Source: Escherichia phage UP19
Length of the DNA stretch: 64,000 nucleotides
Direction: 5' to 3' (one strand)
Sequence record: OX638288
Shown here: positions 3,479 through 63,691 of the stretch, in pieces
How the letters are laid out: every line of letters begins with the position of its first letter
How positions within the stretch are numbered: position 1 is the first letter of the stretch
Notes under the pieces: model-generated
What the model saw: the letters and a program-made list of their open reading frames with translations, nothing else
What the model was told of the DNA's origin: nothing
Database searches by the model: none
Made by a program: the position numbers and the translations under genes

Positions 3479-3507
3479 GTATACAAGGTCTATAGGTGTG
3501 ATACTAT
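3479..3507 (+). promoter_or_regulatory. T4-type early promoter-like cassette (GTATAC -35, 17-nt spacer, TACTAT -10)
   Basis: matches the recurring GTTTAC/TAcTAT cassette; followed by 'tatagacctatcaa' leader. Confidence 0.5.
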
Positions 3508-3544
3508 AGACCTATCAAAACAACAGAGTGAAATGGAGAATAAA

Positions 3545-3757
3545 ATGAAACTTTCTAACCAAGCAATCAACATGTTAAACGAAGTTCGTGCAGCTGGTGC
3601 TAAATGTCTGATGGTTAACACTCGTGACGGTGACCTTCGTCAAGCATTTGGTGAATTGAAATCTGCTGACCTGGTTAAATGTTCAGTTGGTATCGGTAAC
3701 GCACTTCGTGTATCCTTATCCCCTAAAGGTAAAATGTACTTTTTCAACAAAAAGTAA
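3545..3757 (+). CDS. hypothetical protein (70 aa)
   Basis: ORF track 3467..3757 (TTG alt start) trimmed to ATG after GGAGA; in-frame ATG at 3533 also possible. Confidence 0.5.
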   Translation: MKLSNQAINMLNEVRAAGAKCLMVNTRDGDLRQAFGELKSADLVKCSVGIGNALRVSLSPKGKMYFFNKK

Positions 3758-5748: not shown

Positions 5749-5750
5749 TT

Positions 5751-6245: not shown

Positions 6246-6501
6246 AGAATTTTTGGCCGAATCTCAACTGAACGAAAACACTGACCTAGACCGTATGACA
6301 TTCCTGGCTAAGAAAGGCGGCTTCGAATTTAAAGCCATTAAGAAAGTAAATGGGTATTCTTTTGAAGTCGGTGAATATACCTTTGGTAACAAGGGTGATG
6401 GCCAGTGGCAAATTGTTAAAAACGGCAAAGAAGTAGACTACCTTTTCGGTAAGAAACTTAGTGACATTGCTAAAATAATGGGCGAATATTCTAAAAAATA
6501 G
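6232..6501 (+). CDS. internal-protein-like, N-terminal capsid targeting sequence [10 protein letters not shown] (89 aa)
   Basis: ORF track 6070..6501 trimmed to ATG overlapping e stop; N-terminus matches T4 IP capsid-targeting consensus MKTYQEFIAE. Confidence 0.7.
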
Positions 6502-6529
6502 TTTACATCTCCTGTATGCATGATATTAT
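6501..6529 (+). promoter_or_regulatory. T4-type early promoter (GTTTAC 6501-6506, TATTAT 6524-6529) inside inverted repeat CTCCTGTA/TACAGGAG
   Basis: sequence read; inverted repeat 6509-6516 and 6542-6549 pairs the promoter region with the denV SD. Confidence 0.6.
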
Positions 6530-6557
6530 AGACCTATCAATTACAGGAGATTACAAA

Positions 6558-6974
6558 ATGACTCGTATCAACCTTACCTTAGTATCTGAATTGGCTGACC
6601 AACACTTAATGGCTGAATACCGTGAATTACCACGTGTTTTCGGTGCAGTTCGTAAGCATGTTGCTAACGGTAAACGTGTTCGTGATTTTAAAATCAGCCC
6701 TACTTTTATCCTTGGTACAGGCCATGTTACATTCTTTTATGATAAGCTTGAATTTTTACGTAAGCGACAAATTGAGCTTATAGCCGAATGTTTAAAACGT
6801 GGATTCAATATCAAGGATACTACTGTCCAAGACATTTCCGATATTCCACAGGAATTCCGTGGTGATTATATTCCTCACGAAGCTTCTATCGCTATTTCAC
6901 AAGCCCGTTTGGATGAAAAAATTGCACAGCGTCCTACCTGGTACAAATATTATGGTAAGGCTATTTACGCTTAA
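6558..6974 (+). CDS. denV: endonuclease V (pyrimidine dimer DNA glycosylase), 138 aa
   Basis: protein [31 protein letters not shown]... appears near-identical to T4 DenV as recalled. Confidence 0.95.
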
Positions 6975-7016
6975 TTAAATCCGTGATAGAATACTTCTAT
7001 CAACTTAAGGAATAAT

Positions 7017-7316
7017 ATGAAAACTTATCAAGAATTTATTACAGAAGCCAAAGCTCCTAAAGCATTCCAAATAGGTGTCCAAGGCACCTTAGACCAAGAA
7101 TATGTTGATGCTATTGTAGCAAGCCTCGGTAAACAGGGCGTACAAGTGGATTTGGTTGATTTTACTAAAGGTAATACTTTTAATATTGTTACATCTAAAG
7201 GCTCTTTAGCTAAAGTTAAAAAGGCCTTTGGTGTAGCCCAAGCATACGAAATCGACCACTCTGAATTAGAAAATAAAGGTCGCCAGAATACAATTAAAGG
7301 TTCTGGTTCTTTCTAA
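7017..7316 (+). CDS. internal-protein-like with capsid targeting sequence MKTYQEFITEA (99 aa)
   Basis: ORF track; N-terminus matches T4 internal-protein capsid-targeting sequence. Confidence 0.75.
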   Translation: MKTYQEFITEAKAPKAFQIGVQGTLDQEYVDAIVASLGKQGVQVDLVDFTKGNTFNIVTSKGSLAKVKKAFGVAQAYEIDHSELENKGRQNTIKGSGSF

Positions 7317-8788: not shown

Positions 8789-8817
8789 GTTTACATCTCC
8801 TGTAGACGTGGTACTAT
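8789..8817 (+). promoter_or_regulatory. T4-type early promoter (GTTTAC 8789-8794, TACTAT 8812-8817) within inverted repeat CTCCTGTAG/CTACAGGAG
   Basis: 17-nt spacer; arms at 8797-8805 and 8829-8837, the latter containing the regB SD. Confidence 0.6.
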
Positions 8818-8845
8818 AGACCTATCAACTACAGGAGATTACAAA

Positions 8846-9304
8846 ATGTCAGAAATTAATTCAGAAGTATTCATCCGCCGCAACAAATTACGTCGACAGT
8901 TCGAAACCGAATTTCGTGAACTTAACGCGTCCATCAAAAAAGCCGCCATTAAGAGTGGTGTCCCAGCTTTCTTTATTAAGTACTCTAATCACTTGTTGGA
9001 CCGTGCTATCCAACGTGAAATTGACGAAAAATATGTTTTCTCTTTGTTCAAGAAGCTCCACAATCATGTTAAAGAAATCCATGAATTTTTAATCCAGGAG
9101 CCTCTTCCTGACGTAGAATCTGAAATTGTCCCGGGTAAAGTGTATCGACCACTGCGTCTCGAGATTACCGATAAAACCTTATGGTTAGGTATGACCGTAG
9201 ATCGTAAACATCCTGATAAAGGATATTCATTAAAATGCCGTATGGCATTTGTTAACTCTAAACGTTTAGAAGGTAAAACCAGCACTAAAGTAATCTATCT
9301 TTAA
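8846..9304 (+). CDS. regB: RegB site-specific endoribonuclease (152 aa)
   Basis: ORF track 8741..9304 trimmed; EVFIRRNKLRR...LLDRAIQREIDE...RPLRLEITD matches T4 RegB as recalled. Confidence 0.85.
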   Translation: MSEINSEVFIRRNKLRRQFETEFRELNASIKKAAIKSGVPAFFIKYSNHLLDRAIQREIDEKYVFSLFKKLHNHVKEIHEFLIQEPLPDVESEIVPGKVYRPLRLEITDKTLWLGMTVDRKHPDKGYSLKCRMAFVNSKRLEGKTSTKVIYL

Positions 9305-12871: not shown

Positions 12872-12875
12872 TCAA

Positions 12876-12902
12876 AGGTCTCACTTCGGTGGGACCTTTT
12901 TT
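12876..12902 (+). terminator. rho-independent terminator (stem with UUCG loop plus T-run)
   Basis: AGGTCTCAC-TTCG-GTGGGACCT followed by TTTTTT. Confidence 0.6.
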
Positions 12903-12911
12903 CGTTTTAGT

Positions 12912-12940
12912 GTTTACTTCCTCTAGGAACGTGATACTAT
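12912..12940 (+). promoter_or_regulatory. T4-type early promoter (GTTTAC 12912-12917, TACTAT 12935-12940)
   Basis: 17-nt spacer; followed by 'tatagacctatcaa'. Confidence 0.55.
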
Positions 12941-12968
12941 AGACCTATCAACTAATGAGGAGAACAGT

Positions 12969-13205
12969 ATGAAACTTACAAGTACTACGGTTTCATTGGA
13001 ATATGAAATCAATAACCGCCTCCTTGAGATTAAGATATTCGACGACCGAAGTATCTTTGCTGACTACCGAGGGTACAGAATTCGCCTAGAAAAGGACGAG
13101 CTCAAGGAACCACGGCTCCTTAAAGACACATTAAAGGGATGTGGGTGTAAGCTGAAGACCACTCAAGCCCAAGAATTAATTTCTACTATCAACAAATACT
13201 GGTGA
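12969..13205 (+). CDS. hypothetical protein (78 aa)
   Basis: ORF track; GAGGAGAA SD. Confidence 0.55.
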   Translation: MKLTSTTVSLEYEINNRLLEIKIFDDRSIFADYRGYRIRLEKDELKEPRLLKDTLKGCGCKLKTTQAQELISTINKYW

Positions 13206-15979: not shown

Positions 15980-15982
15980 TAA

Positions 15983-16002
15983 AAGGCCTTCGGGCCTTTT
16001 TT
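15983..16002 (+). terminator. rho-independent terminator
   Basis: AGGCC-TTCG-GGCCT followed by TTTTTT. Confidence 0.7.
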
Positions 16003-16022
16003 GGGTTTAGTGCAAAAAAGTA

Positions 16023-16051
16023 GTGTACATCTGCTTTAAACATGTTATTAT
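16023..16051 (+). promoter_or_regulatory. T4-type early promoter (GTGTAC, 17 nt, TATTAT)
   Basis: near-identical to the cassette at 16335-16363. Confidence 0.5.
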
Positions 16052-16101
16052 AGACCTATCAGCTAAAGAGCTGAAAACTTAAACCAAACGGAGATATAAA
16101 A

Positions 16102-16332
16102 ATGTACGCTATCAAAAATTACAAATACGGTTCTTACACTACTAACTTGATCGCTCTGGAAGATACCTTTAAAGCTGATCGTGCTGAAGAATATGAAATT
16201 ATTGAAGCTGTAACTAAAAACAAAGGTAAACAAGTTGTTATGCCTAATGGCCGTAAAGCTGCTCTTTATACAGTAAATGGTGAAACATGGGCCCGCTATA
16301 AAGATGGCTTCTGTGAAATTATTGCAAAATAA
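16102..16332 (+). CDS. hypothetical protein (76 aa)
   Basis: ORF track; GGAGA SD. Confidence 0.55.
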   Translation: MYAIKNYKYGSYTTNLIALEDTFKADRAEEYEIIEAVTKNKGKQVVMPNGRKAALYTVNGETWARYKDGFCEIIAK

Positions 16333-16334
16333 GT

Positions 16335-16363
16335 GTGTACATCCATTTCAAACATGTTATTAT
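16335..16363 (+). promoter_or_regulatory. T4-type early promoter (GTGTAC, 17 nt, TATTAT), duplicate of 16023-16051
   Basis: shared core 'gtgtacatc...aaacatgttattatagacctatca'. Confidence 0.5.
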
Positions 16364-16398
16364 AGACCTATCAAATCTACTGAGTGAAGGAGAATAAA

Positions 16399-17379
16399 AT
16401 GTTAACTATCAAAATCAACAAAGGTATCTATCGCGGTAATGAAATCTCTGGTACGTTCATGAGTTCAGGTAAAACCTGGTTCCCAAATAAAATTCATGAA
16501 TCTGAAGCTCACCTCGGTGATGGCAAGGTATTCGTGCAGATTGATGGTGTTGAACGTGGTGTATGGGTGTTCAAATGTGACGTTGAAATGGAAGGCGCTG
16601 AAGCTCCTGCAATGGTTACTGAATCCGCTGAAGAAATGAAACATCGTATCAACAAACGTTTTAAAGTAATGAACATGATGACTAACGGAATCATCGATGG
16701 TAAAATTCGTTCCCTTATCATCTCTGGTGCCGCAGGTATTGGTAAAACTTATTCTTTGGATAAAGCATTACAGAATGCCCACGAAAATGAAACTATCGAA
16801 TATAAATCAATCAACGGAAAGATTAGTGGAATCGGTCTTTACGAGCAGCTTTGGAATAACCGCGGCCCTAATAGTGTTCTTCTTATTGATGATGTTGATG
16901 TATTCTCTGACATGGATATTCTGAACCTTCTGAAAGCCGCATTGGATACCGGTGAGAAACGTAAGGTGTGCTGGAGCACTTCAAGTTCTTATCTCGATGA
17001 TAAAAATATCGATAAAGAATTCGAATACGAAGGCACCATCGTGTTCATCACCAACGTTGATATTGACCGTGAATTAGAGCGTGGAACTAAACTTGCTCCG
17101 CACCTCCAGGCTTTAGTATCTCGTTCAGTTTACTTAGACCTCGGAGTTCACTCTAACGAAGAGATTATGGTTCGTGTTGAAGACGTTATCCTGTCCACTG
17201 ATATGATGCAAAATCGAGGTCTGACCGATGCTGAGACTTATCAAGCACTGGCATGGATGAAGGCTAATGTATCTCGTCTTCGTAACGTATCATTACGTAC
17301 AGCTCTTTATCTGGCGGACTTCATTGCCACCGATAAAAATGACTGGAGCGAAATCGCTGAAGTTACACTTCTGAAATAA
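16399..17379 (+). CDS. AAA+/P-loop ATPase-like protein with N-terminal extra domain (326 aa)
   Basis: ORF track 16384..17379 (GTG) trimmed; Walker A GAAGIGKT, Walker B LLIDDVD. Confidence 0.65.
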   Translation: MLTIKINKGIYRGNEISGTFMSSGKTWFPNKIHESEAHLGDGKVFVQIDGVERGVWVFKCDVEMEGAEAPAMVTESAEEMKHRINKRFKVMNMMTNGIIDGKIRSLIISGAAGIGKTYSLDKALQNAHENETIEYKSINGKISGIGLYEQLWNNRGPNSVLLIDDVDVFSDMDILNLLKAALDTGEKRKVCWSTSSSYLDDKNIDKEFEYEGTIVFITNVDIDRELERGTKLAPHLQALVSRSVYLDLGVHSNEEIMVRVEDVILSTDMMQNRGLTDAETYQALAWMKANVSRLRNVSLRTALYLADFIATDKNDWSEIAEVTLLK

Positions 17380-17733: not shown

Positions 17734-17762
17734 GTTTACATCTCCAGTAGAAATGATACTAT
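17734..17762 (+). promoter_or_regulatory. T4-type early promoter (GTTTAC 17734-17739, TACTAT 17757-17762) within inverted repeat CTCCAGTAG/CTACTGGAG
   Basis: arms at 17742-17750 and 17774-17782, the latter covering the SD. Confidence 0.6.
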
Positions 17763-17788
17763 AGACCTATCAACTACTGGAGGTTATC

Positions 17789-18313
17789 ATGAACGCTAAA
17801 GATATTTTTTCACTGATTAATTTTAACAATGGTAATTTCAAATCTGAAAAACAAAGCAAGTTCTTTAACGACGTTGCTTGTGGTAATGAGATTACCGTAT
17901 CTGGAGGAGAGATTTACAAAAGCCGTTGGAACTGGATTGCTGTCATTGATTCAGTTGGTATTGTAGAGCTCTATAAAAACACTAACAAAAAACGTACTCT
18001 TCACTGGAGTCGTGAAACCAATCAAGCTTATCAAGCTGAACGTAACAAACGTTTAATGCCTACTGAATCTGACCTGGCAAACGTTAAATCAGATATCGCT
18101 TATTTTGATAACTTGATTGCTGAACAACAAGCGGTTATTGATAAGTTTGATGAAATCAAAGCTTGTAAAGAGATTCCTGAATTCATGCGGGAATCAGTAA
18201 ACGAACAATACGCCCTCACTTCAGGTCGTATCGAACAGTACAAATCGCAACGAGCTGAACGCCAAGCTCTGCTTCAGAAATTTGAAGAGCGTTTAAAGAC
18301 GGTTCTCGCATAA
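17789..18313 (+). CDS. hypothetical protein with C-terminal coiled coil (174 aa)
   Basis: ORF track. Confidence 0.55.
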   Translation: MNAKDIFSLINFNNGNFKSEKQSKFFNDVACGNEITVSGGEIYKSRWNWIAVIDSVGIVELYKNTNKKRTLHWSRETNQAYQAERNKRLMPTESDLANVKSDIAYFDNLIAEQQAVIDKFDEIKACKEIPEFMRESVNEQYALTSGRIEQYKSQRAERQALLQKFEERLKTVLA

Positions 18314-20406: not shown

Positions 20407-20436
20407 GTTTACATCCAAGGACGGATGGAGTATAAT
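20407..20436 (+). promoter_or_regulatory. T4-type early promoter (GTTTAC 20407-20412, TATAAT 20431-20436)
   Basis: 18-nt spacer. Confidence 0.55.
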
Positions 20437-20464
20437 CCTTTTATCAACTACTGAGGAGAATATC

Positions 20465-21475
20465 ATGACCCGTACTGAATACATCAATGCCTTTACTAAG
20501 TATATCACTGACAATACCCCTCCATTAACACCGTATGAGGTGATAGTTTCTAATATCAATAAATGGGTAGACCAAATTGATAAAGCATTATCCAATTGTT
20601 TCAAAGATGAAATCGAAAAGATTGCAGGCCGTTTGTTTATTTCTGATATCGTAGATACATTTAAAGGTTCTCGACTGCTTTCACGGTTGGTCAATAAGGA
20701 TATCCTTTCAGAGTTTGGCAAAGAGAAACACCCAGGTTCCAGCCACGTTGTTAGCTACCAATGGTTTGGTGATGTTTTAAAAAGCTATATCAAAATGAAA
20801 GGTACCGACCCTAAGGGCTTATTTCCTTTACGTTGGGCCGGTGAATTTAAGGCTAACTCCGCATTAATTCTAAAAGCAGCAACCAAAACCTTTGTAAAGG
20901 GTGATTGTCGTACTATCCACCCTATGGCTGATGGCATGATTAAAACAAACAACTATAAAGGGAAGGTGCTTATTTCTATTATTTGGTCGCCTAGTTGGAA
21001 ACCTAAAGAAGTTGAAGTTTCGAAATACCAAGATATTTCCTACAATACCCTGAATATTGTAGAACAAGCTTTAGCTTTGATGGATACAGTAGAGAAATAT
21101 GAGATTCAAGAAATCAACCACCACTTAGGCTGGAAAGGATATGAAGTTTTAGTAACAGTTCGCGAAATCAAATGCCCTGTTCCAAAAACCGACGCTGAAA
21201 TTTACCAAGAAAAATGTGAGGAAATTGTGAACACTGATAAAGAGCCTGCAACCTTAGAAGACTTGATTGATGAGCTGAATGGCCCAAGGCTACTGGCCTG
21301 TGCACCAATTACTAAATCCAAGCCGCCAGAAGTAGTTGTTCTGGAAAAAGCATATAAAGATGCCCTTGCTATCAACAAAAAACTGACCGGACAATATACT
21401 GCTGCCAAGAAACTTTGGGAAGAGTCTACCAATCGTCTGGATAAACTGGAACAAGCCCTGGAGCTGTTGAAATGA
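20465..21475 (+). CDS. hypothetical protein (336 aa)
   Basis: ORF track 20405..21475 (GTG) trimmed to ATG after GAGGAGAA. Confidence 0.55.
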   Translation: MTRTEYINAFTKYITDNTPPLTPYEVIVSNINKWVDQIDKALSNCFKDEIEKIAGRLFISDIVDTFKGSRLLSRLVNKDILSEFGKEKHPGSSHVVSYQWFGDVLKSYIKMKGTDPKGLFPLRWAGEFKANSALILKAATKTFVKGDCRTIHPMADGMIKTNNYKGKVLISIIWSPSWKPKEVEVSKYQDISYNTLNIVEQALALMDTVEKYEIQEINHHLGWKGYEVLVTVREIKCPVPKTDAEIYQEKCEEIVNTDKEPATLEDLIDELNGPRLLACAPITKSKPPEVVVLEKAYKDALAINKKLTGQYTAAKKLWEESTNRLDKLEQALELLK

Positions 21476-25005: not shown

Positions 25006-25034
25006 ATTTACTTCCTCTCCTCACGTGTTATAGT
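25006..25034 (+). promoter_or_regulatory. T4-type early promoter-like (ATTTAC, 17 nt, TATAGT) with inverted repeat CTCCTCA/TGAGGAG
   Basis: arms 25017-25023 and 25051-25057. Confidence 0.45.
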
Positions 25035-25063
25035 CTATCCTATCAACACATGAGGAGAACATT

Positions 25064-25240
25064 ATGACTATCCAAGATAAAGAAATTAAAGTCAACCAGT
25101 ATTATTCAATCAACGGCAAAGCTGTTCTAGTAACTGAAATATCTAGCCTAGACGTGTGGTATACCATAATTGACCTTAATATTAAAACGATTTGTGACCG
25201 TGGTGTATTTTGTTCGATAGCTAAGGAAATTAAATTATGA
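25064..25240 (+). CDS. small protein (58 aa), below ORF-track cutoff
   Basis: translated by eye; GAGGAGAA SD. Confidence 0.4.
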   Translation: MTIQDKEIKVNQYYSINGKAVLVTEISSLDVWYTIIDLNIKTICDRGVFCSIAKEIKL

Positions 25241-25926: not shown

Positions 25927-26127
25927 ATGAATCCTGAATCTAAATTATCACAACGAATTGCTGAAGCCCGTCGTCAGTTCTTTGAAAATATGATAGCTCA
26001 AGGTATTGATGACGAAGTTTTTCTAAACTGGTTTTGGAATAACAAATATTCAAAATGCGCAGGAGCAATATTAATATCAGCCGCAATGATGTATGAAGGT
26101 TGGAAAGGTGCATTAGCACAAAAATAG
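25927..26127 (+). CDS. hypothetical protein (66 aa)
   Basis: ORF track. Confidence 0.5.
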   Translation: MNPESKLSQRIAEARRQFFENMIAQGIDDEVFLNWFWNNKYSKCAGAILISAAMMYEGWKGALAQK

Positions 26128-26156
26128 TTTACAAACTCTTGGGACCAGAGTATAAT
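26127..26156 (+). promoter_or_regulatory. T4-type early promoter (GTTTAC 26127-26132, TATAAT 26151-26156) with -10 inside GGACC/GGTCC hairpin
   Basis: 18-nt spacer; hairpin arms flank the -10 hexamer. Confidence 0.55.
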
Positions 26157-26196
26157 GGTCCTACGGATTATAAATTTTTAAACTGAGGAAATTATT

Positions 26197-26526
26197 ATGT
26201 CACAAGCTATTAAAAACGTACTGAACTCTTTCGCTTTCGATAAAGTTAATGAACTGATGAAAACTGGCTTTGTAACTCCTCAGGTTCTTGACCAATGGGT
26301 TGCTGAACTGTTACCAATCATGCACTCTAAAGACCAAAAAATTGGTAAGAACGGTATTCGTGAAATCCTGGTTCAATATATTCTCGACGAGTTTGATGTG
26401 GCCGCCTTTGGTGTCGAATCTAAAGCTTGGCAGCCAGGTGAAATCACAGACAAAACCATCCGTCGTATGAAGAATCAACGTAAGAAAAAATTCGTTGACC
26501 TGAAAATTGTTAAGGCAGCTAAATGA
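26197..26526 (+). CDS. hypothetical protein (109 aa)
   Basis: ORF track; leader and first codons shared with ORF 18377. Confidence 0.55.
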   Translation: MSQAIKNVLNSFAFDKVNELMKTGFVTPQVLDQWVAELLPIMHSKDQKIGKNGIREILVQYILDEFDVAAFGVESKAWQPGEITDKTIRRMKNQRKKKFVDLKIVKAAK

Positions 26527-39070: not shown

Positions 39071-39100
39071 GTTTACATACCACATGGAACGTGGTAGTAT
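39071..39100 (+). promoter_or_regulatory. T4-type early promoter (GTTTAC 39071-39076, TAGTAT 39095-39100) with hairpin TACCAC/GTGGTA in spacer
   Basis: 18-nt spacer; hairpin 39078-39096. Confidence 0.5.
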
Positions 39101-39130
39101 CCTTCCTATCAACTACATGAGGAAATTATA

Positions 39131-39367
39131 ATGGAAGCTTTAATCGTTAGTGCTGGTGTTTTAGGATTCGGTTCTCTGGTTATTATGTTCATTGGTTACT
39201 TTTTACCATGGATTCTGGCCCTTCTGCGAGGCACTCGTAGCAATGTTGGAATCTTCTTCCTTAATCTCCTGTTAGGGTGGACGATGATTGGTTGGGTAGT
39301 GGCTTTAATCTGGGCTATCGTCGCTGAACGTAAATCAAACGCACAAATCATTATCGTTAAACAATGA
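39131..39367 (+). CDS. imm: small two-helix membrane protein, Imm-like by position (78 aa)
   Basis: position immediately downstream of gene 43; two transmembrane segments. Confidence 0.5.
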   Translation: MEALIVSAGVLGFGSLVIMFIGYFLPWILALLRGTRSNVGIFFLNLLLGWTMIGWVVALIWAIVAERKSNAQIIIVKQ

Positions 39368-40009: not shown

Positions 40010-40069
40010 GCAATAGAAATTTATTAAAAATAGTGTATAATGTACCTACATTCACTTGAGGAACAGATA

Positions 40070-45941: not shown

Positions 45942-47365
45942 AAACTATTTTGGCTCAACTGCTAGGCAATAGTGATTATTTCACTAAGGTCTGGCCTTAT
46001 ATGAATGATTCTTATTTTGACCAGGGTCCGGCAAAGACCCTTTTCAAAGAAATCAAAAAACATGTCAATGAATATAATGCGGTGCCTTCTAAAAATGCTT
46101 TGAGTATTGCATTAGATAACAGCACCCTTTCAGAAGTTGAACATCAAGGAGCTAAAGAGCTTTTAAATTCTCTGAATGCAGGCCCTGAAGACCAAGAATG
46201 GTTGGTTAAAGAGACAGAGAAATATGTTCAGAAGGCAGCGATGTATAATGCCACTTCAAAAATTATTGAAATTCAAACTAATGCAGACCTTCCGGTTGAG
46301 CAACAAAATAGAAAACTCCCAGGTATTGGTGCTATTCCAGATATCATGCGTGATGCATTATCGATTTGTTTCGATTCTGAATTAGGCCATGACTGGATGG
46401 ATGACTATGAAGAACGTTTTAAAAGTTATTCTGATAAAGCCCGTAAGGTTCCATTCCGACTTAATATTCTGAATAAGATTACTAAGGGTGGAGCAGAGTT
46501 TGGTACTGAAAACGTATTGTTGGCAGGGACAAACGTAGGTAAGTCTCTTGGACTATGTTCATTGGCTGCTGATTACCTTCAATCCGGTTATGATGTTCTT
46601 TATATCTCCATGGAGATGGCAGAGGAAGTATGTGCTAAGCGTATCGATGCTAACCTTCTGGATGTATCACTGGATGATATCGATGATGGTCACGTCTCAT
46701 GGCCTGAATATAAAGCTAAGATGGATAAATGGCGTTCAACTGCTACTTTAGGTCGTTTAAAGATTAAACAGTATCCTACTGGTGGCGCGAATGCCGATAC
46801 ATTCCGTGCATTGTTAAACGAATACAAGCTCAAACAAAACTTTGTCCCACAGGTCGTTATCGTCGACTACTTGGCTATCTGTGCTTCATCCCGTACGAAA
46901 GTTTTCTCTGAAAACAGTTATGGATTGATTAAGATGGTTGCCGAAGAACTACGTGGACTTGCAGTAGAGAAGAAATTATTGTTGTGGACTGCAGCCCAGA
47001 CTACTCGTGGTGCGAACGTTGCCGCCGAAATCGATATGGCTGATATCGCTGAATCCTTTGGTATTGCACATACTGCAGACTTCATGTTAGGTGTGGTCGA
47101 GACAGAAGAGTTTGCTCAGATGGGTATGCAGATGGTTAAGCAGCTTAAATCTCGTTATGGTGATAAGAGCTACTACAACAAATTTAAGATTGGTGTTAAG
47201 AAAGGAAACCAGCGTTGGTATGAAGTTGAAGACGATTCTAACCCAGGTCCAGTGAACACTGTTCGTGAGGCTACAGGTGAAATGAACCGCCAAGCAGAGG
47301 TCAATCGCCAGTCGCGTGTTAATAGAAGTGATTTAGACGATTTAGCAGCATCTATCAAATTTTAA
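45935..47365 (+). CDS. 41: replicative DNA helicase gp41 (DnaB-like), 476 aa, GTG start
   Basis: ORF track 45926..47365 trimmed to GTG 8 nt after AAGAGG giving MVETIL...; Walker A GTNVGKS; matches T4 gp41 as recalled. Confidence 0.93.
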   Translation: MVETILAQLLGNSDYFTKVWPYMNDSYFDQGPAKTLFKEIKKHVNEYNAVPSKNALSIALDNSTLSEVEHQGAKELLNSLNAGPEDQEWLVKETEKYVQKAAMYNATSKIIEIQTNADLPVEQQNRKLPGIGAIPDIMRDALSICFDSELGHDWMDDYEERFKSYSDKARKVPFRLNILNKITKGGAEFGTENVLLAGTNVGKSLGLCSLAADYLQSGYDVLYISMEMAEEVCAKRIDANLLDVSLDDIDDGHVSWPEYKAKMDKWRSTATLGRLKIKQYPTGGANADTFRALLNEYKLKQNFVPQVVIVDYLAICASSRTKVFSENSYGLIKMVAEELRGLAVEKKLLLWTAAQTTRGANVAAEIDMADIAESFGIAHTADFMLGVVETEEFAQMGMQMVKQLKSRYGDKSYYNKFKIGVKKGNQRWYEVEDDSNPGPVNTVREATGEMNRQAEVNRQSRVNRSDLDDLAASIKF

Positions 47366-47385
47366 GGAGCTTCGGCTCCTTTTTT
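47366..47385 (+). terminator. rho-independent terminator
   Basis: GGAGC-TTCG-GCTCC followed by TTTTTT. Confidence 0.7.
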
Positions 47386-47394
47386 GTTTTAAGG

Positions 47395-47423
47395 GTTTAC
47401 ATCTCCTATAGGCATGATACTAT
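47395..47423 (+). promoter_or_regulatory. T4-type early promoter (GTTTAC 47395-47400, TACTAT 47418-47423)
   Basis: 17-nt spacer; followed by 'tatagacctatcaa'. Confidence 0.6.
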
Positions 47424-47447
47424 AGACCTATCAACTTGGAGAACAAA

Positions 47448-47765
47448 ATGAAAACCATCGACTGTAAAGCAGAATATAAAGTGTATTATCACGGAAGTTG
47501 TAGTGTTGCTAATATTGGTAATATGCTTTGTCCTCCTGAGGAAACAGGAGTTCTGTCTGAAACTGGTCGTAAGAAAAACCTAAATCGTGTGTTCTTTACT
47601 GAAGATATCGGTTTGGCTAAGATTTATGCTGGACGAGCTGCTCGTTCAGTGGGAGGAGAACCTCGTCTTTATCGTGTAATTGCTCCGGTAGATGTGGTTT
47701 GTTTAAATGATACTAAAGGCGCCACGGTTTATCATGCTGAATGGGCCTTCTGTGAGGAAATCTAA
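47448..47765 (+). CDS. hypothetical protein (105 aa)
   Basis: ORF track 47436..47765 (TTG) trimmed to ATG after GGAGA. Confidence 0.5.
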   Translation: MKTIDCKAEYKVYYHGSCSVANIGNMLCPPEETGVLSETGRKKNLNRVFFTEDIGLAKIYAGRAARSVGGEPRLYRVIAPVDVVCLNDTKGATVYHAEWAFCEEI

Positions 47766-48413: not shown

Positions 48414-48443
48414 GTTTACAACGGTCTATGGTAATGATACTAT
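48414..48443 (+). promoter_or_regulatory. T4-type early promoter (GTTTAC 48414-48419, TACTAT 48438-48443)
   Basis: 18-nt spacer. Confidence 0.55.
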
Positions 48444-48471
48444 GGACCTATCAACTAACTAGGAGTTAAAA

Positions 48472-48765
48472 ATGAAAAAGTTATTAATCGCAGCAATCCT
48501 TACAGTAGCATCATGTGGCACGGCTCCGGTAACGGCCGGTTATGACGCAGACCTTTGTGAGTGGTCTATGACTGCCGATCAAGAAGCAGTTGAGCATCAG
48601 ATTTATGCCGATATCATGAACATCACTAAACGTGACCGTCCTGATATGGTTAAAGAAGTATCTGACCAATTGGCTTCTAGCGGTGTTATGCAGTATAACT
48701 ATGTTCTGTACTGTGATGCTAATTTCGATAACAAAAATATCGTTAAAGAGGTGACAGGTGAATAA
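48472..48765 (+). CDS. sp: Spackle periplasmic superinfection-exclusion protein (97 aa)
   Basis: signal peptide; GYDADLCEWSMTADQ...VMQYNYVLYCD matches T4 Sp as recalled; located between 41 and 61. Confidence 0.85.
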   Translation: MKKLLIAAILTVASCGTAPVTAGYDADLCEWSMTADQEAVEHQIYADIMNITKRDRPDMVKEVSDQLASSGVMQYNYVLYCDANFDNKNIVKEVTGE

Positions 48766-51919: not shown

Positions 51920-51925
51920 TTATAA

Positions 51926-51946
51926 GGAACCTTCGGGTTCCTTTTT
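51926..51946 (+). terminator. rho-independent terminator
   Basis: GGAACC-TTCG-GGTTCC followed by TTTTT. Confidence 0.7.
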
Positions 51947-51956
51947 CGTTTTAAGG

Positions 51957-51994
51957 GTTTACTTTATAGGAGGGTTATGATAAGATGGTCTTAT
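51957..51994 (+). promoter_or_regulatory. early-promoter-like GTTTAC followed by palindrome ATAAGA-TGG-TCTTAT
   Basis: GTTTAC at 51957-51962; -10 not canonical. Confidence 0.35.
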
Positions 51995-52012
51995 CTTATA
52001 GAGGAGAACACT

Positions 52013-52222
52013 ATGTTAAATCGTTGGATTAAACCAAATAAAACTTTGGATGAAATTATCGCTAATCACGTATTGAAAAAGTACTTCTATACTCCTTGGT
52101 ATACCGAAGTTATTGTCCATTCATTTATGATGCATGAAGACGGTTCTATCGAATTTAATGCCGAAATCCGTCACGAGACTGATGATATTGATAAGGTCGA
52201 ATTTAAACGAGGTTTCCTATGA
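52013..52222 (+). CDS. hypothetical protein (69 aa)
   Basis: ORF track 51977..52222 trimmed to ATG after GAGGAGA. Confidence 0.5.
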   Translation: MLNRWIKPNKTLDEIIANHVLKKYFYTPWYTEVIVHSFMMHEDGSIEFNAEIRHETDDIDKVEFKRGFL

Positions 52223-53572: not shown

Positions 53573-53805
53573 TGAATTGGCTAACTAATATACCTACATC
53601 GGCGTTGGATATCGACCGTAAACAAGCTCGTAAGGAAACCGAGCAAAAAAATATTCAGGCAAAAGCTCCTAAGATTGAAGCTGAGAAGCCAGAAACAAAA
53701 AGCTCTTATGAATCAAAAAGCTCCTATACTTCATATACCCAATCCTCATTAGGCATGGCTGCCGACATTGCAGTGTTTGGCGTCCCACTTGGTGTGTTTA
53801 AGTAG
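53572..53805 (+). CDS. hypothetical protein (77 aa)
   Basis: ORF track 53551..53805 trimmed to TAATG-overlap ATG. Confidence 0.45.
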   Translation: MNWLTNIPTSALDIDRKQARKETEQKNIQAKAPKIEAEKPETKSSYESKSSYTSYTQSSLGMAADIAVFGVPLGVFK

Positions 53806-53833
53806 TTTACACCCCCTCCCTTCATGTTATAAT
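53805..53833 (+). promoter_or_regulatory. T4-type early promoter (GTTTAC 53805-53810, TATAAT 53828-53833) followed by RBS hairpin TGACCTC/GAGGTCA
   Basis: 17-nt spacer; hairpin 53833-53856 overlaps the SD. Confidence 0.6.
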
Positions 53834-53857
53834 GACCTCTAAATCACTGGAGGTCAT

Positions 53858-54427
53858 ATGAACATCGAACAAAAATGTCTTTATCAAGACCGAATCAATT
53901 CTAAATTTTCAAAATCTGAACAAGCGTTATTAGAGAAATGTCTAGACGCCAAAAAAGACCCTAACTTCCATTACGACCTCGACAAACTGGTTCGCAAGCA
54001 TGTTACTTCAGCGGTTCCAGTAGAGTTGTATCGTGGGATTACCACCAGAGAACTTGAGCAATTAGAGCTCCTTTCAGTAGGGTATCAATGGTCTCCTGGT
54101 CGAGTTACTTCTTTTAGTACACAATACTCTCAGGCTCGTCAGTTCGCAGGGGCATGGGAGTATGGAACCAAAACCATTTTAAGTCTCAGGAATGCACCGT
54201 TCATTTTCGACTACTACAATCATGCTATCGACCTTGTTCTTGCAGGGAATGTGGATGAGCTTGAAATAGATGAATCTCGTATCGACCTCTATGATATGGT
54301 TGAAACTGAATGCGAGTTCATGGTCTCTAGTCTATCGCGATTTGAGATTGTTGCAATCGAAACCGTCAAAAGGGATCCATACGAAATCGAGTATAAAACA
54401 ATTCATTTAAAAATGTTAGATTTTTAG
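53858..54427 (+). CDS. ADP-ribosyltransferase, Mod-type (ModB-like by position), 189 aa
   Basis: R-S-E-type motifs LYRGIT, SFSTQYS, ECEF; paralogue of next gene; position between soc and srd as for T4 mod genes. Confidence 0.65.
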   Translation: MNIEQKCLYQDRINSKFSKSEQALLEKCLDAKKDPNFHYDLDKLVRKHVTSAVPVELYRGITTRELEQLELLSVGYQWSPGRVTSFSTQYSQARQFAGAWEYGTKTILSLRNAPFIFDYYNHAIDLVLAGNVDELEIDESRIDLYDMVETECEFMVSSLSRFEIVAIETVKRDPYEIEYKTIHLKMLDF

Positions 54428-54456
54428 TTTACAGGCAAGGAAGCTTGTGGTACTAT
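54427..54456 (+). promoter_or_regulatory. T4-type early promoter (GTTTAC 54427-54432, TACTAT 54451-54456)
   Basis: 18-nt spacer. Confidence 0.55.
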
Positions 54457-54481
54457 CTTTCTATCAACTGAGGAGAATAAT

Positions 54482-55096
54482 ATGTTATATCCAAGCCATA
54501 AATTAGCAGAATTTATCAACAATGTCAAATGCGATGATTTCCGTGAGAATACCCAGATAGAAATTGATGAGGTGTATTCTGATTTAGAACAGAGCACGCT
54601 CTGGCAGTGTATGGAAAATAAACCTGATTCTATCCAGGAAACTCTGAACAAAATTATTCGTAAGAACCTGACTTCTGTAGTGCCTGATAAGCTCTATCGC
54701 GGTATATCTAAAAAGACCCTGAAGTATCTAGAGTCCACAATGTGTGTGGGTGCGGTAATTGAATTCGACCGTGTGATGAGCTTCTCTAAAGACTTCAACG
54801 TAGCAAGGAATTTCGCATCTTATAACTTCTACGGCACATTTAATATCTTTTGTATTAATGATGCGCCATTTGTGTACAATTATCAGGAAGAAATCTTTAA
54901 AATGTTATGTGCTGCGCCCCCTGAAGAGTTCCCAGGCGCATTTCCTGAATCTACACGTGTAGCAAACTTACAATTAATTAATGATGAAGATGAGATGATG
55001 TTCCCTGCGGGAACTACGCTGCGCGTAGACTCTATTGAGAGAAATCCTAAATGGAATAATTACACCATTTGGAATCTTTCCGTTCTTTCTTACTGA
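54482..55096 (+). CDS. ADP-ribosyltransferase, Mod-type (ModA-like by position), 204 aa
   Basis: LYRGIS motif; paralogue of 53858..54427. Confidence 0.65.
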   Translation: MLYPSHKLAEFINNVKCDDFRENTQIEIDEVYSDLEQSTLWQCMENKPDSIQETLNKIIRKNLTSVVPDKLYRGISKKTLKYLESTMCVGAVIEFDRVMSFSKDFNVARNFASYNFYGTFNIFCINDAPFVYNYQEEIFKMLCAAPPEEFPGAFPESTRVANLQLINDEDEMMFPAGTTLRVDSIERNPKWNNYTIWNLSVLSY

Positions 55097-55165: not shown

Positions 55166-55194
55166 GTTTACTTTATCAAGCAACATGATACTAT
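55166..55194 (+). promoter_or_regulatory. T4-type early promoter (GTTTAC 55166-55171, TACTAT 55189-55194)
   Basis: 17-nt spacer; followed by 'tatagacctatcaa'. Confidence 0.6.
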
Positions 55195-55234
55195 AGACCT
55201 ATCAACTAATCGTCCGTAAGATGAGAAAAATATC

Positions 55235-55984
55235 ATGCCTACTATTAAAACTAACGATGAATTTGAGTTAAAGGTTTACAACCGCCGCAAACACACCAAA
55301 GCTTCTGCTTATAAACGTGGTAAGGACTTCAATCTGTCTAGTAAATATGTTCGTAGACTTCTCGAACAAAAAGTGTGCGCTTATTCAGGCGAGTACTTTG
55401 ATGAAAATTCAGTTAATGATAAGATTTCATTTGAACGTTTTAACAACGATATCGGCTATATTGAGGGTAATGTAATCCCAGTTAAAGTTAAGTATAACAG
55501 CTTACGTGCCGATTTGTCCCTTGATGAACTGAAACGTGCTCAGACTCGTTTAGCAGTTCGTATTTCAGGTAGTTCTAAAATGCCTAATAGTTTTAAAGTT
55601 ACCCCTGATAATTATTATAAAATCCGTAAAATCGTTAAAAATATAAAAGATACCCAAAGAGGTCTTAAAAAACGTGAAAAACGTCTTAAAGACCTTATTA
55701 AATCAGGAGCTACTGATAAGACTCCTTCTGTTATCGCAGTTAAGGCCTGTATCCACGGTTCTAATGCTTCAATCGGTACTATGGAAAAAGGTCTTAAATC
55801 TTTAATTGGTGGACCTGACTGGCGTGTCAAGTTTAAATTGTCTGAAGCAGAAACGCGTTACGATATGTATGATAAAATTATTCAAGGTCTGGAGCGTTTA
55901 GAACACCTTTCTTTTATTGACAAATTGAAGTTGAAAAAAGGTCTTCCGCTGAATGCTTCAATTTTTTCACTGATTAGAGGTTAA
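55235..55984 (+). CDS. srd: Srd-like protein by position (249 aa)
   Basis: size and position between mod genes and dda as in T4; sequence identity not verified. Confidence 0.5.
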   Translation: MPTIKTNDEFELKVYNRRKHTKASAYKRGKDFNLSSKYVRRLLEQKVCAYSGEYFDENSVNDKISFERFNNDIGYIEGNVIPVKVKYNSLRADLSLDELKRAQTRLAVRISGSSKMPNSFKVTPDNYYKIRKIVKNIKDTQRGLKKREKRLKDLIKSGATDKTPSVIAVKACIHGSNASIGTMEKGLKSLIGGPDWRVKFKLSEAETRYDMYDKIIQGLERLEHLSFIDKLKLKKGLPLNASIFSLIRG

Positions 55985-58535: not shown

Positions 58536-58564
58536 GTTTACTTCTCCTCATGACATGATATTAT
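58536..58564 (+). promoter_or_regulatory. T4-type early promoter (GTTTAC 58536-58541, TATTAT 58559-58564) within 10-bp inverted repeat TCTCCTCATG/CATGAGGAGA
   Basis: arms 58543-58552 and 58577-58586, the latter covering the SD. Confidence 0.6.
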
Positions 58565-58591
58565 CTACCCTATCAACATGAGGAGAACAAA

Positions 58592-59101
58592 ATGAAAATT
58601 TATCGAGTTGAGTCATCGTTCAGTATCTTAGATGATGGAAACGCTATCACAATACGACGAGACCTCTGTACCCAAATGACCCCGTATAGAAGTACAACAG
58701 ACTCATGGAGTGAAGGCTGGTTATTAGAAGTAGGTTTAGACAGACCTATTTTTAGACATCATCATAGCATTAATAAAAATATCCCACTACCAAGTCAAGA
58801 TAAGTTGCTGGTAGAAAATTCTAATAAAACCATTAGAACTAAGTGGAAACGGCCTGATTATGAAGGCTGCGACGATTATATTCCAGGCTGGTTTGTTAAC
58901 CTCTACCATTTTGCTTTTGCCAGTGAGTATGATATGATGCGCTGGTTCACTCGTGAAGAGCGTAAAGAATTATCTTCTAAAGGATTCTATCTTGCTGTTT
59001 ACGAAATACCAGAAGATGAGGTTGTCATCGGTGGCCGCCAAGTAATGTTCCGCAAATCTTATGCCGAACTCGTAGATTTTATTGAATTGAGAACAATATG
59101 A
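58592..59101 (+). CDS. hypothetical protein (169 aa)
   Basis: ORF track. Confidence 0.55.
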   Translation: MKIYRVESSFSILDDGNAITIRRDLCTQMTPYRSTTDSWSEGWLLEVGLDRPIFRHHHSINKNIPLPSQDKLLVENSNKTIRTKWKRPDYEGCDDYIPGWFVNLYHFAFASEYDMMRWFTREERKELSSKGFYLAVYEIPEDEVVIGGRQVMFRKSYAELVDFIELRTI

Positions 59102-59648: not shown

Positions 59649-59677
59649 GTTTACTTTATCGAGAGCCATGTTATAAT
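59649..59677 (+). promoter_or_regulatory. T4-type early promoter (GTTTAC 59649-59654, TATAAT 59672-59677) with -10 inside hairpin AGAGCCAT/ATGGCTCT
   Basis: 17-nt spacer; hairpin 59662-59683 has the -10 hexamer in its loop. Confidence 0.6.
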
Positions 59678-59719
59678 GGCTCTTATGGATTATAATCCTT
59701 TAACCAAGAGAGAAAAATT

Positions 59720-60271
59720 ATGATTACTATCGGTGAAATTGTTCGTGTATCCAAAGAATCTCGCTCAAAAGCCGCAGGTCGTTTTGTTGAAGTTGCAGGT
59801 ATTCGTACCAATTTAGTAGGTGGAATTAAAGAAGTTAAAGTGCGTATTATTCCTAAAAATGGCCAGACCGAAACCGAATTTGCTTATGTTCGCCCTAAAT
59901 TTTTAAAATCGACTGAATTTACCGGATACATCGCTCCTGTAGTTGAAGAAGTTGAATCCCATGATGGGTATGTATGTGAAAGCAATGATATCCGTGGCGT
60001 AGTAGCTCAAGACGTTGAAACTATTGACCAATCTCATGTCGGCGTTGATTTCAAATGGAAATTAGGTCGAGGAGTGTGTTTTAATACTCCTAAACCGTTC
60101 AAATATGTTGACGAACCTTTTGGTACTTACGAAACCAGTAGCATGTCTGGTTACATCACAGACCAGTGGGTTGAAGGTGGCGTTAAGCTCTATAACATCG
60201 TGTTCCTTGGAACCTTTAAGGTTGTTCCTGAAAGCTTTATTGTTGAATATGCTAACATTCACCGTGCATAA
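59720..60271 (+). CDS. hypothetical protein (183 aa); paralogue of 59098..59646
   Basis: ORF track; shared C-terminal motif. Confidence 0.55.
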   Translation: MITIGEIVRVSKESRSKAAGRFVEVAGIRTNLVGGIKEVKVRIIPKNGQTETEFAYVRPKFLKSTEFTGYIAPVVEEVESHDGYVCESNDIRGVVAQDVETIDQSHVGVDFKWKLGRGVCFNTPKPFKYVDEPFGTYETSSMSGYITDQWVEGGVKLYNIVFLGTFKVVPESFIVEYANIHRA

Positions 60272-60284: not shown

Positions 60285-60320
60285 GTATACAATACGGTAG
60301 GGTAGTGATAAGATTACCCT
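60285..60320 (+). promoter_or_regulatory. early-promoter-like cassette (GTATAC) with hairpin AGGGTA/TACCCT; duplicate of cassette at 3479
   Basis: downstream leader matches 3517-3547. Confidence 0.4.
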
Positions 60321-60352
60321 ATCAAAACAAATGAGTGAAATGGAGAATAAAA

Positions 60353-60421
60353 ATGTTTGCACCTTATATTATGATTGCAGTTATCGTTATCTGTCTGTAT
60401 CTTTTAATTAAAGCTTGTTAA
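60353..60421 (+). CDS. tiny hydrophobic peptide (22 aa), speculative
   Basis: translated by eye; ATG after GGAGA in duplicated leader. Confidence 0.25.
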   Translation: MFAPYIMIAVIVICLYLLIKAC

Positions 60422-63455: not shown

Positions 63456-63617
63456 ATGAGAAAGTACTGGGTTACGCTCGTCACAGGTGAATATGGTTAT
63501 CTCTGGACAGATACACGTCCTCTTTTTGCAGAGTACGTTACTATCACAGTTGAAACATGGGACGGCGAAGTTTACCAAACCCGTGGTCAAGTTTATAGAG
63601 TCGATTCAAGCAACTAA
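63456..63617 (+). CDS. small protein (53 aa), below ORF-track cutoff
   Basis: translated by eye; strong AAAAGGAG SD; preceded by hairpin ACGGTAC/GTACCGT. Confidence 0.45.
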   Translation: MRKYWVTLVTGEYGYLWTDTRPLFAEYVTITVETWDGEVYQTRGQVYRVDSSN

Positions 63618-63620
63618 TCA

Positions 63621-63639
63621 AGGGCCTTCGGGCCCTTTT
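63621..63639 (+). terminator. rho-independent terminator
   Basis: GGGCC-TTCG-GGCCC followed by TTTT. Confidence 0.65.
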
Positions 63640-63643
63640 CGGG

Positions 63644-63673
63644 GTTTACAACAGATTAAAAGTGTGATACGAT
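63644..63673 (+). promoter_or_regulatory. T4-type early promoter (GTTTAC 63644-63649, TACGAT 63668-63673)
   Basis: 18-nt spacer. Confidence 0.5.
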
Positions 63674-63691
63674 TCTCTAAGAGGTGAGAAT

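Follow-up and report, generated by a model that had tools for sequence, protein, structure and literature searches.

Several promoter-associated elements described in T4-type phages come close to the sequences analyzed here. The promoter early stem-loop (PeSL) was defined as an early promoter of the sigma70-like type that follows an A/T-rich tract, carries a stem-loop at one of five positions, and leads into a Shine-Dalgarno (SD) sequence and start codon (Arbiol 2010, PMC2839356). In that description, the stem-loops lie most often between the promoter boxes or over the −10 box and are read as terminators or attenuators, recombination between PeSL copies is proposed as a shuffling mechanism, and PeSL-like sequences are already noted near g43 of phage JS98. 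PeSLs were later extended to T4/PST with the consensus TTTACW-N17-TAYWAT (Comeau 2014, PMC4122927). The T4 early promoters (Pe) combine a −35 box GTTTAC, a TGn-extended −10 box, an A-rich upstream region, and CTATCAAC at +1 (Hinton 2010, PMC2988021). In the T4 genes e, soc, 49, and I-TevI, the SD or AUG is paired in transcripts from upstream promoters; the proximal promoter lies in or between the hairpin arms, and RNA initiated there is therefore free of the 5′ arm and open to translation (Uzan and Miller 2010, PMC3014915). Here, we analyzed a 64,000-nt stretch of Escherichia phage UP19 (sequence record OX638288; hereafter the window, to which all coordinates refer) and found 22 intergenic cassettes that resemble T4-type early promoters joined to the translation start of a gene. 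About half of them form strong hairpins spanning the promoter, and in six the promoter sequence is predicted to mask the SD in RNA begun further upstream.

The window is syntenic with the T4 early region from rIIA to e and belongs to a JS98/JS10-like Dhakavirus (~97.5% identity to Escherichia phages JS10 and JS98). The motif GTTTAC-N16-19-TANNAT has 19 exact matches, all (19/19) on the plus strand, which carries all genes, against 1.15 ± 0.99 expected from 100 dinucleotide-preserving shuffles, none of which (0/100) reached 19. Variants with one mismatch in the −35 box occur at 3479 and 60285 (GTATAC), 16023 and 16335 (GTGTAC), and 25006 and 6963 (ATTTAC), and the set of 22 intergenic cassettes was delimited with one such mismatch allowed. 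Three extra promoter-like sites (GTTTAC-N18-TANNAT) lie inside open reading frames (ORFs), at 15944, 22864, and 25704; the latter two are conserved at T4 47452 (before pin) and T4 41261 (before 55.4), respectively. A preliminary description of this DNA had reported a conserved GTTTAC unit recurring throughout the window in front of about 25 genes. The recurrence stands, each of the positions that it listed is a real copy (some as one-mismatch −35 variants), and its number is a fair count of the 22 intergenic cassettes plus the three sites in ORFs. A generic sigma70 scan of the window showed no enrichment over shuffles (65 versus 56.6 and 58 versus 56.0), and the signal is thus specific to the T4-type GTTTAC motif. 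Searching the window for further cassettes through CTATCAA found none, and no Rfam family matched anywhere across it.

The cassettes are ordered as UP-like A/T tract, −35 GTTTAC, 17- to 18-nt spacer, TGn, −10, CTATCAAC, SD, and ATG, with the consensus aaaaAag-GTTTAC-atc..c-N-caTGaTActAT-agaCCTAtcaAc. TGn is present in 20 of the 22, and the A+T fraction over the 20 nt ahead of the −35 box (consensus aaaaAag) is 0.60 to 0.90 in 21. As sequence matches, the published TTTACW consensus fits the −35 box of 17/22 cassettes and TAYWAT fits most −10 boxes. An ATG follows 18 to 50 nt past the −10 box in all 22 cases, preceded in 18 by a GGA-containing SD (the cassette at 3479 was scored with its likelier ATG at 3545); the srd, motB, and rIIA.1 cassettes have only weak GAG/GAGG-type SD cores. 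The downstream motif that had been called frequent is indeed so, since AGACCTATCA occurs exactly nine times and its core CCTATCAA is retained in 15 to 18 of the 22 cassettes. The upstream stop codon overlaps the −35 box or lies within 5 nt of it in 12/22 cassettes (the gap is −12 to +13 nt in 16), several of which have the overlap TA-GTTTAC (e.g., 6499-6506, 26125-26132, 53803-53810, and 54425-54432), so that the UP-like tract falls within the coding region of the gene ahead. Longer gaps without a T-run terminator precede sp (35 nt) and srd (69 nt). Thirteen cassettes are positional orthologues of T4 cassettes with the GTTTAC-N17/18-TANNAT motif, namely, those of denV, regB, nrdC.4, nrdC.8, nrdC.10, 55.6, sp, mrh.2, modB, srd, motB.2, motB, and rIIA.1. 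The T4-type architecture, shared down to the A-rich upstream region and CTATCAAC at +1, together with these orthologous positions, identifies the cassettes as the putative UP/−35/TGn/−10 early promoters of this phage. They differ from T4 Pe in the dominant discriminator (agacctatcaac in the window, acaactatcaac in T4) and in the cassette type found at each site.

In class I cassettes, the spacer just past the −35 box pairs with the SD (denV, regB, nrdC.8, 55.6, and motB.2); modB is a variant in which the discriminator pairs with the SD and ATG, a design also found in many denV orthologues. The regB cassette exemplifies the arrangement. Its 5′ arm, ATCTCCTGTAG (8795-8805), pairs with the 3′ arm CTACAGGAGAT (8829-8839), which holds the SD GGAG (8834-8837), and the predicted +1 falls between them, near 8824 (the A of ATCAAC). 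The inverted repeats pointed out in the preliminary description at regB (CTCCTGTAG at 8797 and CTACAGGAG at 8829) and motB.2 (TCTCCTCATG at 58543 and CATGAGGAGA at 58577) are exact. The extended −10 box (TGATA or TGGTA) is moreover complementary to TATCA of CTATCAAC at the predicted +1 (e.g., 8809-8828). This complementarity amounts to a consensus-level inner helix in both the window phage and T4, which may explain the conservation of CTATCAAC; in class I, these 5 bp turn an apparent 25- to 30-nt loop into a long irregular hairpin with a loop of 9 to 10 nt.

We assessed SD accessibility from base-pair probabilities, with +1 set at 7 nt past the −10 box. In the six class I cassettes, the probability of the SD being unpaired was 0.00 to 0.01 in read-through RNA versus 0.43 to 0.84 in self-initiated RNA; the predicted +1 lies 3′ of the 5′ arm in all six, a geometry that would leave the SD free in the cassette's own transcript. 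The self-initiated regB leader (8824-8860) is unstructured (−1.4 kcal/mol; z 0.14). Substitution of a foreign promoter gave a probability of ~0.3, and weaker effects were evident at 12912 and 20407 (see the table). More broadly, the SD was masked in long RNA for 7/16 cassette genes versus 10/68 noncassette genes (p = 0.016). The same calculation recovered gene e as a positive control. In the gene e (lysozyme) region at 5721-5753, a late promoter TATAAATA lies at 5721, and in the predicted fold of long RNA, the SD is completely paired; this structure is the known gene e hairpin, conserved here. The earlier proposal that read-through transcripts sequester the ribosome-binding site (RBS) while self-initiated ones leave it free agrees with these results for regB and five other cassettes, whereas the −10-enclosing hairpins to which it had been extended leave the SD open. 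Likewise, the folding of read-through and promoter-proximal RNAs, put forward as a check, revealed SD masking in six cassettes (eight at most) but not in the other 14 of the 22.

The hairpins were evaluated by a swap test, in which cassettes folded from the −35 box to ATG were compared with chimeras of one promoter half and the leader of another. Cognate folds averaged −13.19 kcal/mol, against −9.85 ± 0.55 kcal/mol for permuted ones, and 0/20,000 permutations reached the observed mean. T4 cassettes behaved in the same way (−13.89 versus −9.23 ± 0.53 kcal/mol; 0/20,000 permutations), and the effect is thus not peculiar to the window. Individually, 11 hairpins had z scores of −2.5 to −5.7 against dinucleotide-preserving shuffles. 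The inverted repeats said to occur "in many copies" hold up as strong hairpins in about 11 of the 22 cassettes, although only six of those involve the SD.

Comparison among T4-like phages revealed conservation of pairing rather than of sequence. The regB upstream regions of six T4-like lineages all have promoter-spanning stems, but the sequences that build them differ (ATCTCCTGTAG/CTACAGGAGAT in the window, UUUUCCUCUUGAC/GUUAAGAGGAGAA in T4, and TTTCTCCTCTTTAT/ATAAAGAGGAGAAA in another lineage); the stem is purely −10 enclosing in one of these lineages and combines nested class I and class II elements in two. Cognate regB folds averaged −19.8 kcal/mol against −10.65 kcal/mol for the chimeras, and only the identity permutation of 720 reached the observed mean. 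The window denV cassette is nearly identical to that of T4. Among denV orthologues, the SD is always masked, either by spacer-SD pairing, with extensions TGTAG, GTTTG, CCAAG, TGTG, and TGTAGATG, each accompanied by its complement, or by pairing of the −10/discriminator region with the SD and AUG (e.g., GATGTCTTCC/GGAGGACATC). Over 13 distinct class I cassettes, the arm duplexes averaged −19.6 versus −10.8 kcal/mol (0/100,000 permutations) and displayed ~10 different extensions past the CTCC/GGAG core. The T4 nrdC.8 stem (GTTCCTC/GAGGAAC) differs from that of the window, and the motB.2 stem reads TCCTCGGT.AG/CTACTGAGGA in T4-type orthologues. The −10-enclosing motB stem covaries as well (GAGAGCC/GGCTCTC in the window versus GGGACC/GGTCCC in T4), and both the motB.2 and motB orthologues of other T4-like lineages keep their stems with different arm sequences. 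Every single substitution seen in motB orthologues makes a G.U pair. Tolerance of G.U pairs and of changes that create them favors sense-strand RNA over DNA as the site of the structure. Collectively, cognate folding and covariation show that the hairpins are under selection. A chance or compositional match of a CU-rich spacer with GGAG was rejected on the grounds of the swap tests and the covarying extensions.

Promoter-spanning stems of a second kind (class II; cassettes at 3479, 26127, 48414, 59649, and 60285) have 9 to 14 bp placed around the −10 box or with this box in the 3′ arm. They end at the predicted +1, and the SD is uninvolved and stays open. The −10-enclosing hairpins initially proposed at motB and 55.2 are among them (59655-59689 and 26137-26167). 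Five further cassettes (12912, 16023, 47395, 51957, and 63644) carry a UUCG-loop hairpin followed by a T-run in the 26- to 43-nt gap upstream of the −35 box. Strong spanning hairpins occur in 0/5 of these terminator-bearing cassettes versus 11/17 of the others (Fisher p = 0.035; treating mrh.2 as strong gives 0.135), which suggests that the spanning hairpin and the upstream terminator are alternative devices. An intrinsic-terminator role of the promoter-spanning stems themselves was rejected, because they lack T-runs, which only the five upstream UUCG hairpins have. The coordinates of all cassettes are listed below.

Early-promoter cassettes of the window. z, hairpin score against dinucleotide-preserving shuffles; MFE, minimum free energy in kcal/mol; SD RT and SD self, probability of an unpaired SD in read-through and self-initiated RNA.
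Gene behind cassette	Type	Position	Strand	Elements	z (MFE)	SD RT	SD self
regB	class I	8789..8848	+	−35 GTTTAC 8789-8794; TGn and −10 (TGGTACTAT) 8809-8817; ATG 8846	−3.84 (−18.3)	0.00	0.66
denV	class I	6501..6560	+	arms 6507-6516 / 6542-6551 (3′ arm includes SD); inner helix TGATA/TATCA	−3.89	0.00	0.43
nrdC.8	class I	17734..17791	+	arms 17740-17750 / 17774-17784 (ATCTCCAGTAG / CTACTGGAGGT)	−3.59	0.01	0.45
55.6	class I	25006..25066	+	−35 ATTTAC; arms 25016-25033 / 25040-25058	−5.70 (−21.1)	0.00	0.62
motB.2	class I	58536..58594	+	arms 58542-58552 / 58577-58587 (TTCTCCTCATG / CATGAGGAGAA)	−5.42	0.00	0.84
modB	class I variant	53805..53860	+	5′ arm, −10 end and discriminator 53832-53841; 3′ arm, SD through ATG 53848-53857	−3.29	0.00	0.55
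~70-aa ORF	class II	3479..3547	+	stem 3486-3495 / 3504-3513, −10 in 3′ arm, ends at predicted +1; SD GGAG 3535 (stays open); likely ATG 3545	−3.19		
55.2	class II	26127..26199	+	stem 26137-26147 / 26156-26167, −10 in loop	−2.48		
sp (spackle)	class II	48414..48474	+	stem 48423-48433 / 48438-48448	−4.68		
motB	class II	59649..59722	+	stem 59655-59669 / 59676-59689, −10 TATAAT in loop	−4.09		
21-codon hydrophobic ORF	class II	60285..60355	+	stem 60296-60306 / 60313-60323	−5.13		
78-aa ORF	terminator-promoter composite	12874..12971	+	UUCG terminator 12874-12899 and T-run; −35 12912; weak spacer-SD pairing		0.15	0.65
76-aa ORF	terminator-promoter composite	15981..16104	+	terminator 15981-16000; −35 GTGTAC 16023; no promoter-spanning stem			
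105-aa ORF upstream of dmd	terminator-promoter composite	47364..47450	+	terminator 47364-47381; −35 47395			
mrh.2	terminator-promoter composite	51924..52015	+	terminator 51924-51943; −35 51957; moderate cognate-specific stem			
rIIA.1	terminator-like hairpin, then promoter	63614..63694	+	terminator-like GGGCCttcgGGCCC hairpin; −35 63644			
Internal-head-protein-like gene	no specific stem	6963..7019	+	−35 ATTTAC			
nrdC.10	no specific stem	16335..16401	+	−35 GTGTAC; SD GGAGAATAAAA, a perfect RegB consensus match			
nrdC.4	weak stems only	20407..20467	+			0.20	0.65
imm-like gene, just past gene 43	small spacer hairpin	39071..39133	+	CCAC/GTGG			
modA	hairpin between −35 and −10	54427..54484	+	hairpin 54429-54450			
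srd	no specific stem	55166..55237	+				

The cassettes thus serve denV, an internal protein (IP)-like gene, regB, nrdC.10, nrdC.8, nrdC.4, 55.6, 55.2, the imm-like gene after g43, sp, mrh.2, modB, modA, srd, motB.2, motB, rIIA.1, and five small unnamed ORFs. They stand in front of 22 of the ~131 genes, including many conserved early genes (regB, denV, modA, modB, srd, motB, and sp); this contradicts the earlier statement that such units flank most noncore ORFs. The 21-codon hydrophobic ORF (MFAPYIMIAVIVICLYLLIKAC; 60353-60418) behind the cassette at 60285 is unannotated in JS10, and the leaders of the cassettes at 3479, 16335, and 60285 have gagtgaa.ggagaataaaATG in common.

The leaders also stand out as putative targets of the RegB endoribonuclease. 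The published RegB/S1 target is GG*AGRAYARAA, secondary structure protects from cleavage, and most middle transcripts are RegB resistant. Seven plus-strand sites in the window match at least 10 of the 11 consensus positions (3535, 12959, 16389, 47438, 54472, 58582, and 60342), and 7/7 lie in cassette leaders just before the ATG; an early promoter and a predicted RegB-sensitive SD are thus joined in the cassettes. Read-through RNA over class I cassettes could come from MotA-box-like middle promoters that precede such cassettes, at 8082, 23998, and 52795.

Taking the promoters and the hairpin gating together as one proposal, we judge it moderately probable that the cassettes are the sigma70-dependent Pe of a T4-type, JS98-like phage, that every one is joined to the translation start of the gene it serves, and that their hairpins discriminate between RNAs of different origin. 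Promoter use, the start sites, and the effects on translation and RegB cleavage are those predicted by motif matches and folding models. In about half of the cassettes, sequence upstream of the predicted +1 (spacer or −10/discriminator) has been selected as the complement of downstream sequence, and because the arms flank the predicted +1, the hairpin would form only in RNA begun further upstream. In class I, self-initiated immediate-early transcripts would be translated and later inactivated by RegB. Read-through RNA from upstream early or middle promoters would instead be translationally silent for that gene, with its GGAG shielded and RegB resistant, and protein synthesis would be limited to the brief period of Pe activity. 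Class II stems most likely would attenuate, insulate, or process read-through RNA, as proposed for PeSL stem-loops. The 40 to 60 bp of homology shared among cassettes would also permit exchange between sites.

The gating proposed for class I is related to that of T4 e, soc, 49, and I-TevI, with which it has in common the SD/AUG pairing in upstream-initiated RNA and a proximal promoter placed in or between the arms. Those hairpins, however, are coupled to late promoters (TATAAATA) and delay expression, whereas the class I promoters are of the early sigma70 type, their predicted output is early only, and the SD is also a RegB target. The window has four TATAAATA late-promoter sites (5721, 12110, 49583, and 51647), none of them at a class I cassette. 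By this analogy, class I would be the mirror image of the late-only logic. Full-text literature searches and T4 reviews yielded no description of RBS masking at early promoters or of spacer-SD pairing, although an older description is possible. The early-promoter version of the RBS-masking logic is apparently undescribed, while the cassette family itself is known.

Several observations weigh against this account. It rests wholly on sequence and thermodynamic prediction. Only six (eight at most) of the 22 cassettes sequester the SD, and the remaining 14 exhibited no read-through-specific SD masking. Over all 22, the cognate promoter lowered SD accessibility no more than swapped ones did (Wilcoxon p = 0.46), a null result that confines the effect to a subset of cassettes. 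The enrichment in masked SDs is moderate, as 15% of noncassette genes also have one. The model offers no explanation of what class II does. Finally, the stems could be weaker in vivo, owing to cotranscriptional folding and to ribosomes that terminate at the adjacent upstream stop codon.

Another interpretation, compatible with the gating proposal rather than exclusive of it, is the classical PeSL reading, in which the stem-loops are terminators or attenuators and recombination targets and the cassettes are mainly mobile linkers that shuffle accessory genes. We consider it somewhat doubtful. The cassettes do share with PeSLs the nature of intergenic repeats of ~60 to 100 bp, with an A/T tract, early promoter, stem-loop, SD, and start codon, that look exchangeable between sites, and the cassette at 39071 sits at the very g43 locus of the JS98 PeSL-like sequences. 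The published definition covers stem-loops between the boxes or over the −10 box, and the published positions fit about 11 cassettes (five of class II, one between the boxes at modA, and five with upstream terminators, which are true ones). "PeSL-like", the term used in the preliminary description, is hence fair as a broad label, and class II, the modA stem, and the five composites fit the definition, but SD pairing is not part of the published description. Published stems are compact, and GC rich in RB49/phi1, with the SD as a separate motif without described pairing; class I forms a long hairpin from the spacer across −10/+1 to the SD and matches no subclass among the five published. No specific stem is present in about a quarter of the window copies (~5), T-runs are absent from the promoter-spanning stems, the covariation of class I arms is specifically with the SD, and conserved early genes as well as ORFans stand behind the cassettes. 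Repeats at T-even internal-protein genes, to the extent that they are summarized by later authors (Repoila 1994, via PMC2839356), similarly consist of T4-early-promoter repeats with AT-rich stem-loops of variable size, but concern the IP loci only and are discussed there as recombination substrates; in our scan of T4, ipI, ipII, and ipIII have class II stems of 8 to 14 bp. Published descriptions place PeSLs preferentially in hyperplastic regions and next to ORFans and indels, and they invoke recombination between copies, with mini-circles and chimeric cassettes. As for mobility, a comparison with JS10 and IME281 gave 14 distinct indel or replacement events, of which 7 break within a cassette (6496, 16319, 48404, 51916, 53806, 59699, and 60335), and the orf76 module (15973-16319), replaced in IME281, is flanked by two cassettes. 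Mostly, however, only one end of an event falls in a cassette, and the association is significant against random positions (p = 1.8e-5) but not against random gene junctions (p = 0.11), so that, in the comparative genomics put forward as a check, the suspected link to gene shuffling is suggestive. Cassette similarity, which does not follow position, is the stronger, though indirect, evidence for exchange. In 11/13 orthologous pairs, the T4 orthologue is more distant from the window cassette than is some other cassette of the window; the identity of the regB cassette is 90% to window denV and 89% to T4 denV, against 72% to T4 regB; denV-type cassettes occupy at least seven sites in the window; and the 55.2 cassette is of the motB type (83% identical to the T4 motB cassette). 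Overall, the evidence for a gene-shuffling role is suggestive.

Three further explanations concern the selective force behind the stems. Class I stems might chiefly hide GGAG in long polycistronic RNA, sparing middle mRNAs that cross early leaders from cutting. This accords with the fact that the best RegB/S1 consensus sites in the window are cassette SDs (7/7), with the protection that structure affords from RegB, and with the resistance of most middle transcripts; nonetheless, the same stem necessarily blocks 30S binding, which makes the two effects inseparable by sequence, and the discriminator-SD/AUG stems of denV also pair the start codon, a feature relevant to translation and not to RegB. 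We regard this shielding as rather unlikely to be the chief function. Translational coupling, in which ribosomes terminating at the stop codon abutting the −35 box melt the stem and thereby tie read-through translation of the downstream gene to that of the upstream one, draws on the stop codons that overlap or closely precede the −35 box in 12 of the 22 cassettes (16 with the −12 to +13 nt range). We find it improbable, since the 5′ arm begins 7 to 12 nt past the stop codon, the footprint of a ribosome terminating there would cover no more than the first 1 to 3 bp of a 10- to 16-bp stem, and greater distance from the stop codon does not go with a weaker stem. Finally, a DNA-level structure, i.e., a promoter cruciform or single-strand hairpin affecting RNA polymerase binding, replication, or endonuclease VII-type recombination, could be imagined from inverted repeats flanking the −10 box and from the presence in the window of gene 49, encoding a cruciform-cutting endonuclease. 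In DNA, the tolerated G.U pairs would nevertheless become G.T mismatches, with A.C mismatches in the complementary strand, cruciform extrusion is disfavored by class I loops with internal bulges, and the arms follow the SD, a signal that belongs to RNA; a DNA-level role therefore appears very improbable.

Other features of the window lie outside the cassettes. Upstream of gene 39, a UUCG-loop terminator (AAGGGCttcgGCCCTT) and, immediately behind it, a MotA-box-like middle promoter (TATGCTTTA-N12-TAATAT) occupy 61528-61575, a composite that resembles the "PmSL" of Comeau 2014 (PMC4122927). The block at 40040-44244 lies between the imm-like gene and uvsX, the place of 42 and b-gt in T4. Its JS10 annotation lists a phosphoheptose isomerase and a thymidylate-kinase-like gene along with hypothetical genes, and the block may be an alternative DNA-modification module. 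A 227-aa ORF at 32030-32713, not present in JS10, occupies the junction of genes 46 and 45.2, where IME281 has a homing endonuclease on the opposite strand; this junction is probably a hotspot for insertion of mobile endonucleases.

The basic picture of this region, that of the well-known early promoters of T4-type phages, is unchanged by our analysis. According to T4 reviews, promoter shut-down and RegB account for only part of the shut-off of early protein synthesis at ~3 to 4 min. A broader proposal, which we put forward tentatively and with little confidence, is that an early-only translation gate operates across T4-like phages at a subset of immediate-early genes (regB, denV, motB.2, nrdC.8, modB, and others). 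The early promoter would lie in a hairpin whose 3′ arm is the RegB-target SD, only self-born transcripts would be translated and then killed by RegB, and all read-through RNA would be silent and RegB resistant. Such a gate would be a general, hitherto undescribed contribution to the abrupt shut-off of early synthesis and would constitute a sixth, functionally distinct PeSL subclass. If true, it would add a simple cis-acting layer of control by which regB and denV are translatable only from their own early transcripts, and it would account for the RegB resistance of some GGAG sites. For genome annotation, the stem-loops grouped as "PeSL" are heterogeneous, comprising terminators, −10 enclosures, and predicted SD masks, and the denV-type cassette at regB provides a concrete case of apparent regulatory module swapping, with whole promoter-leader cassettes exchanged between sites, in the evolution of these phages.

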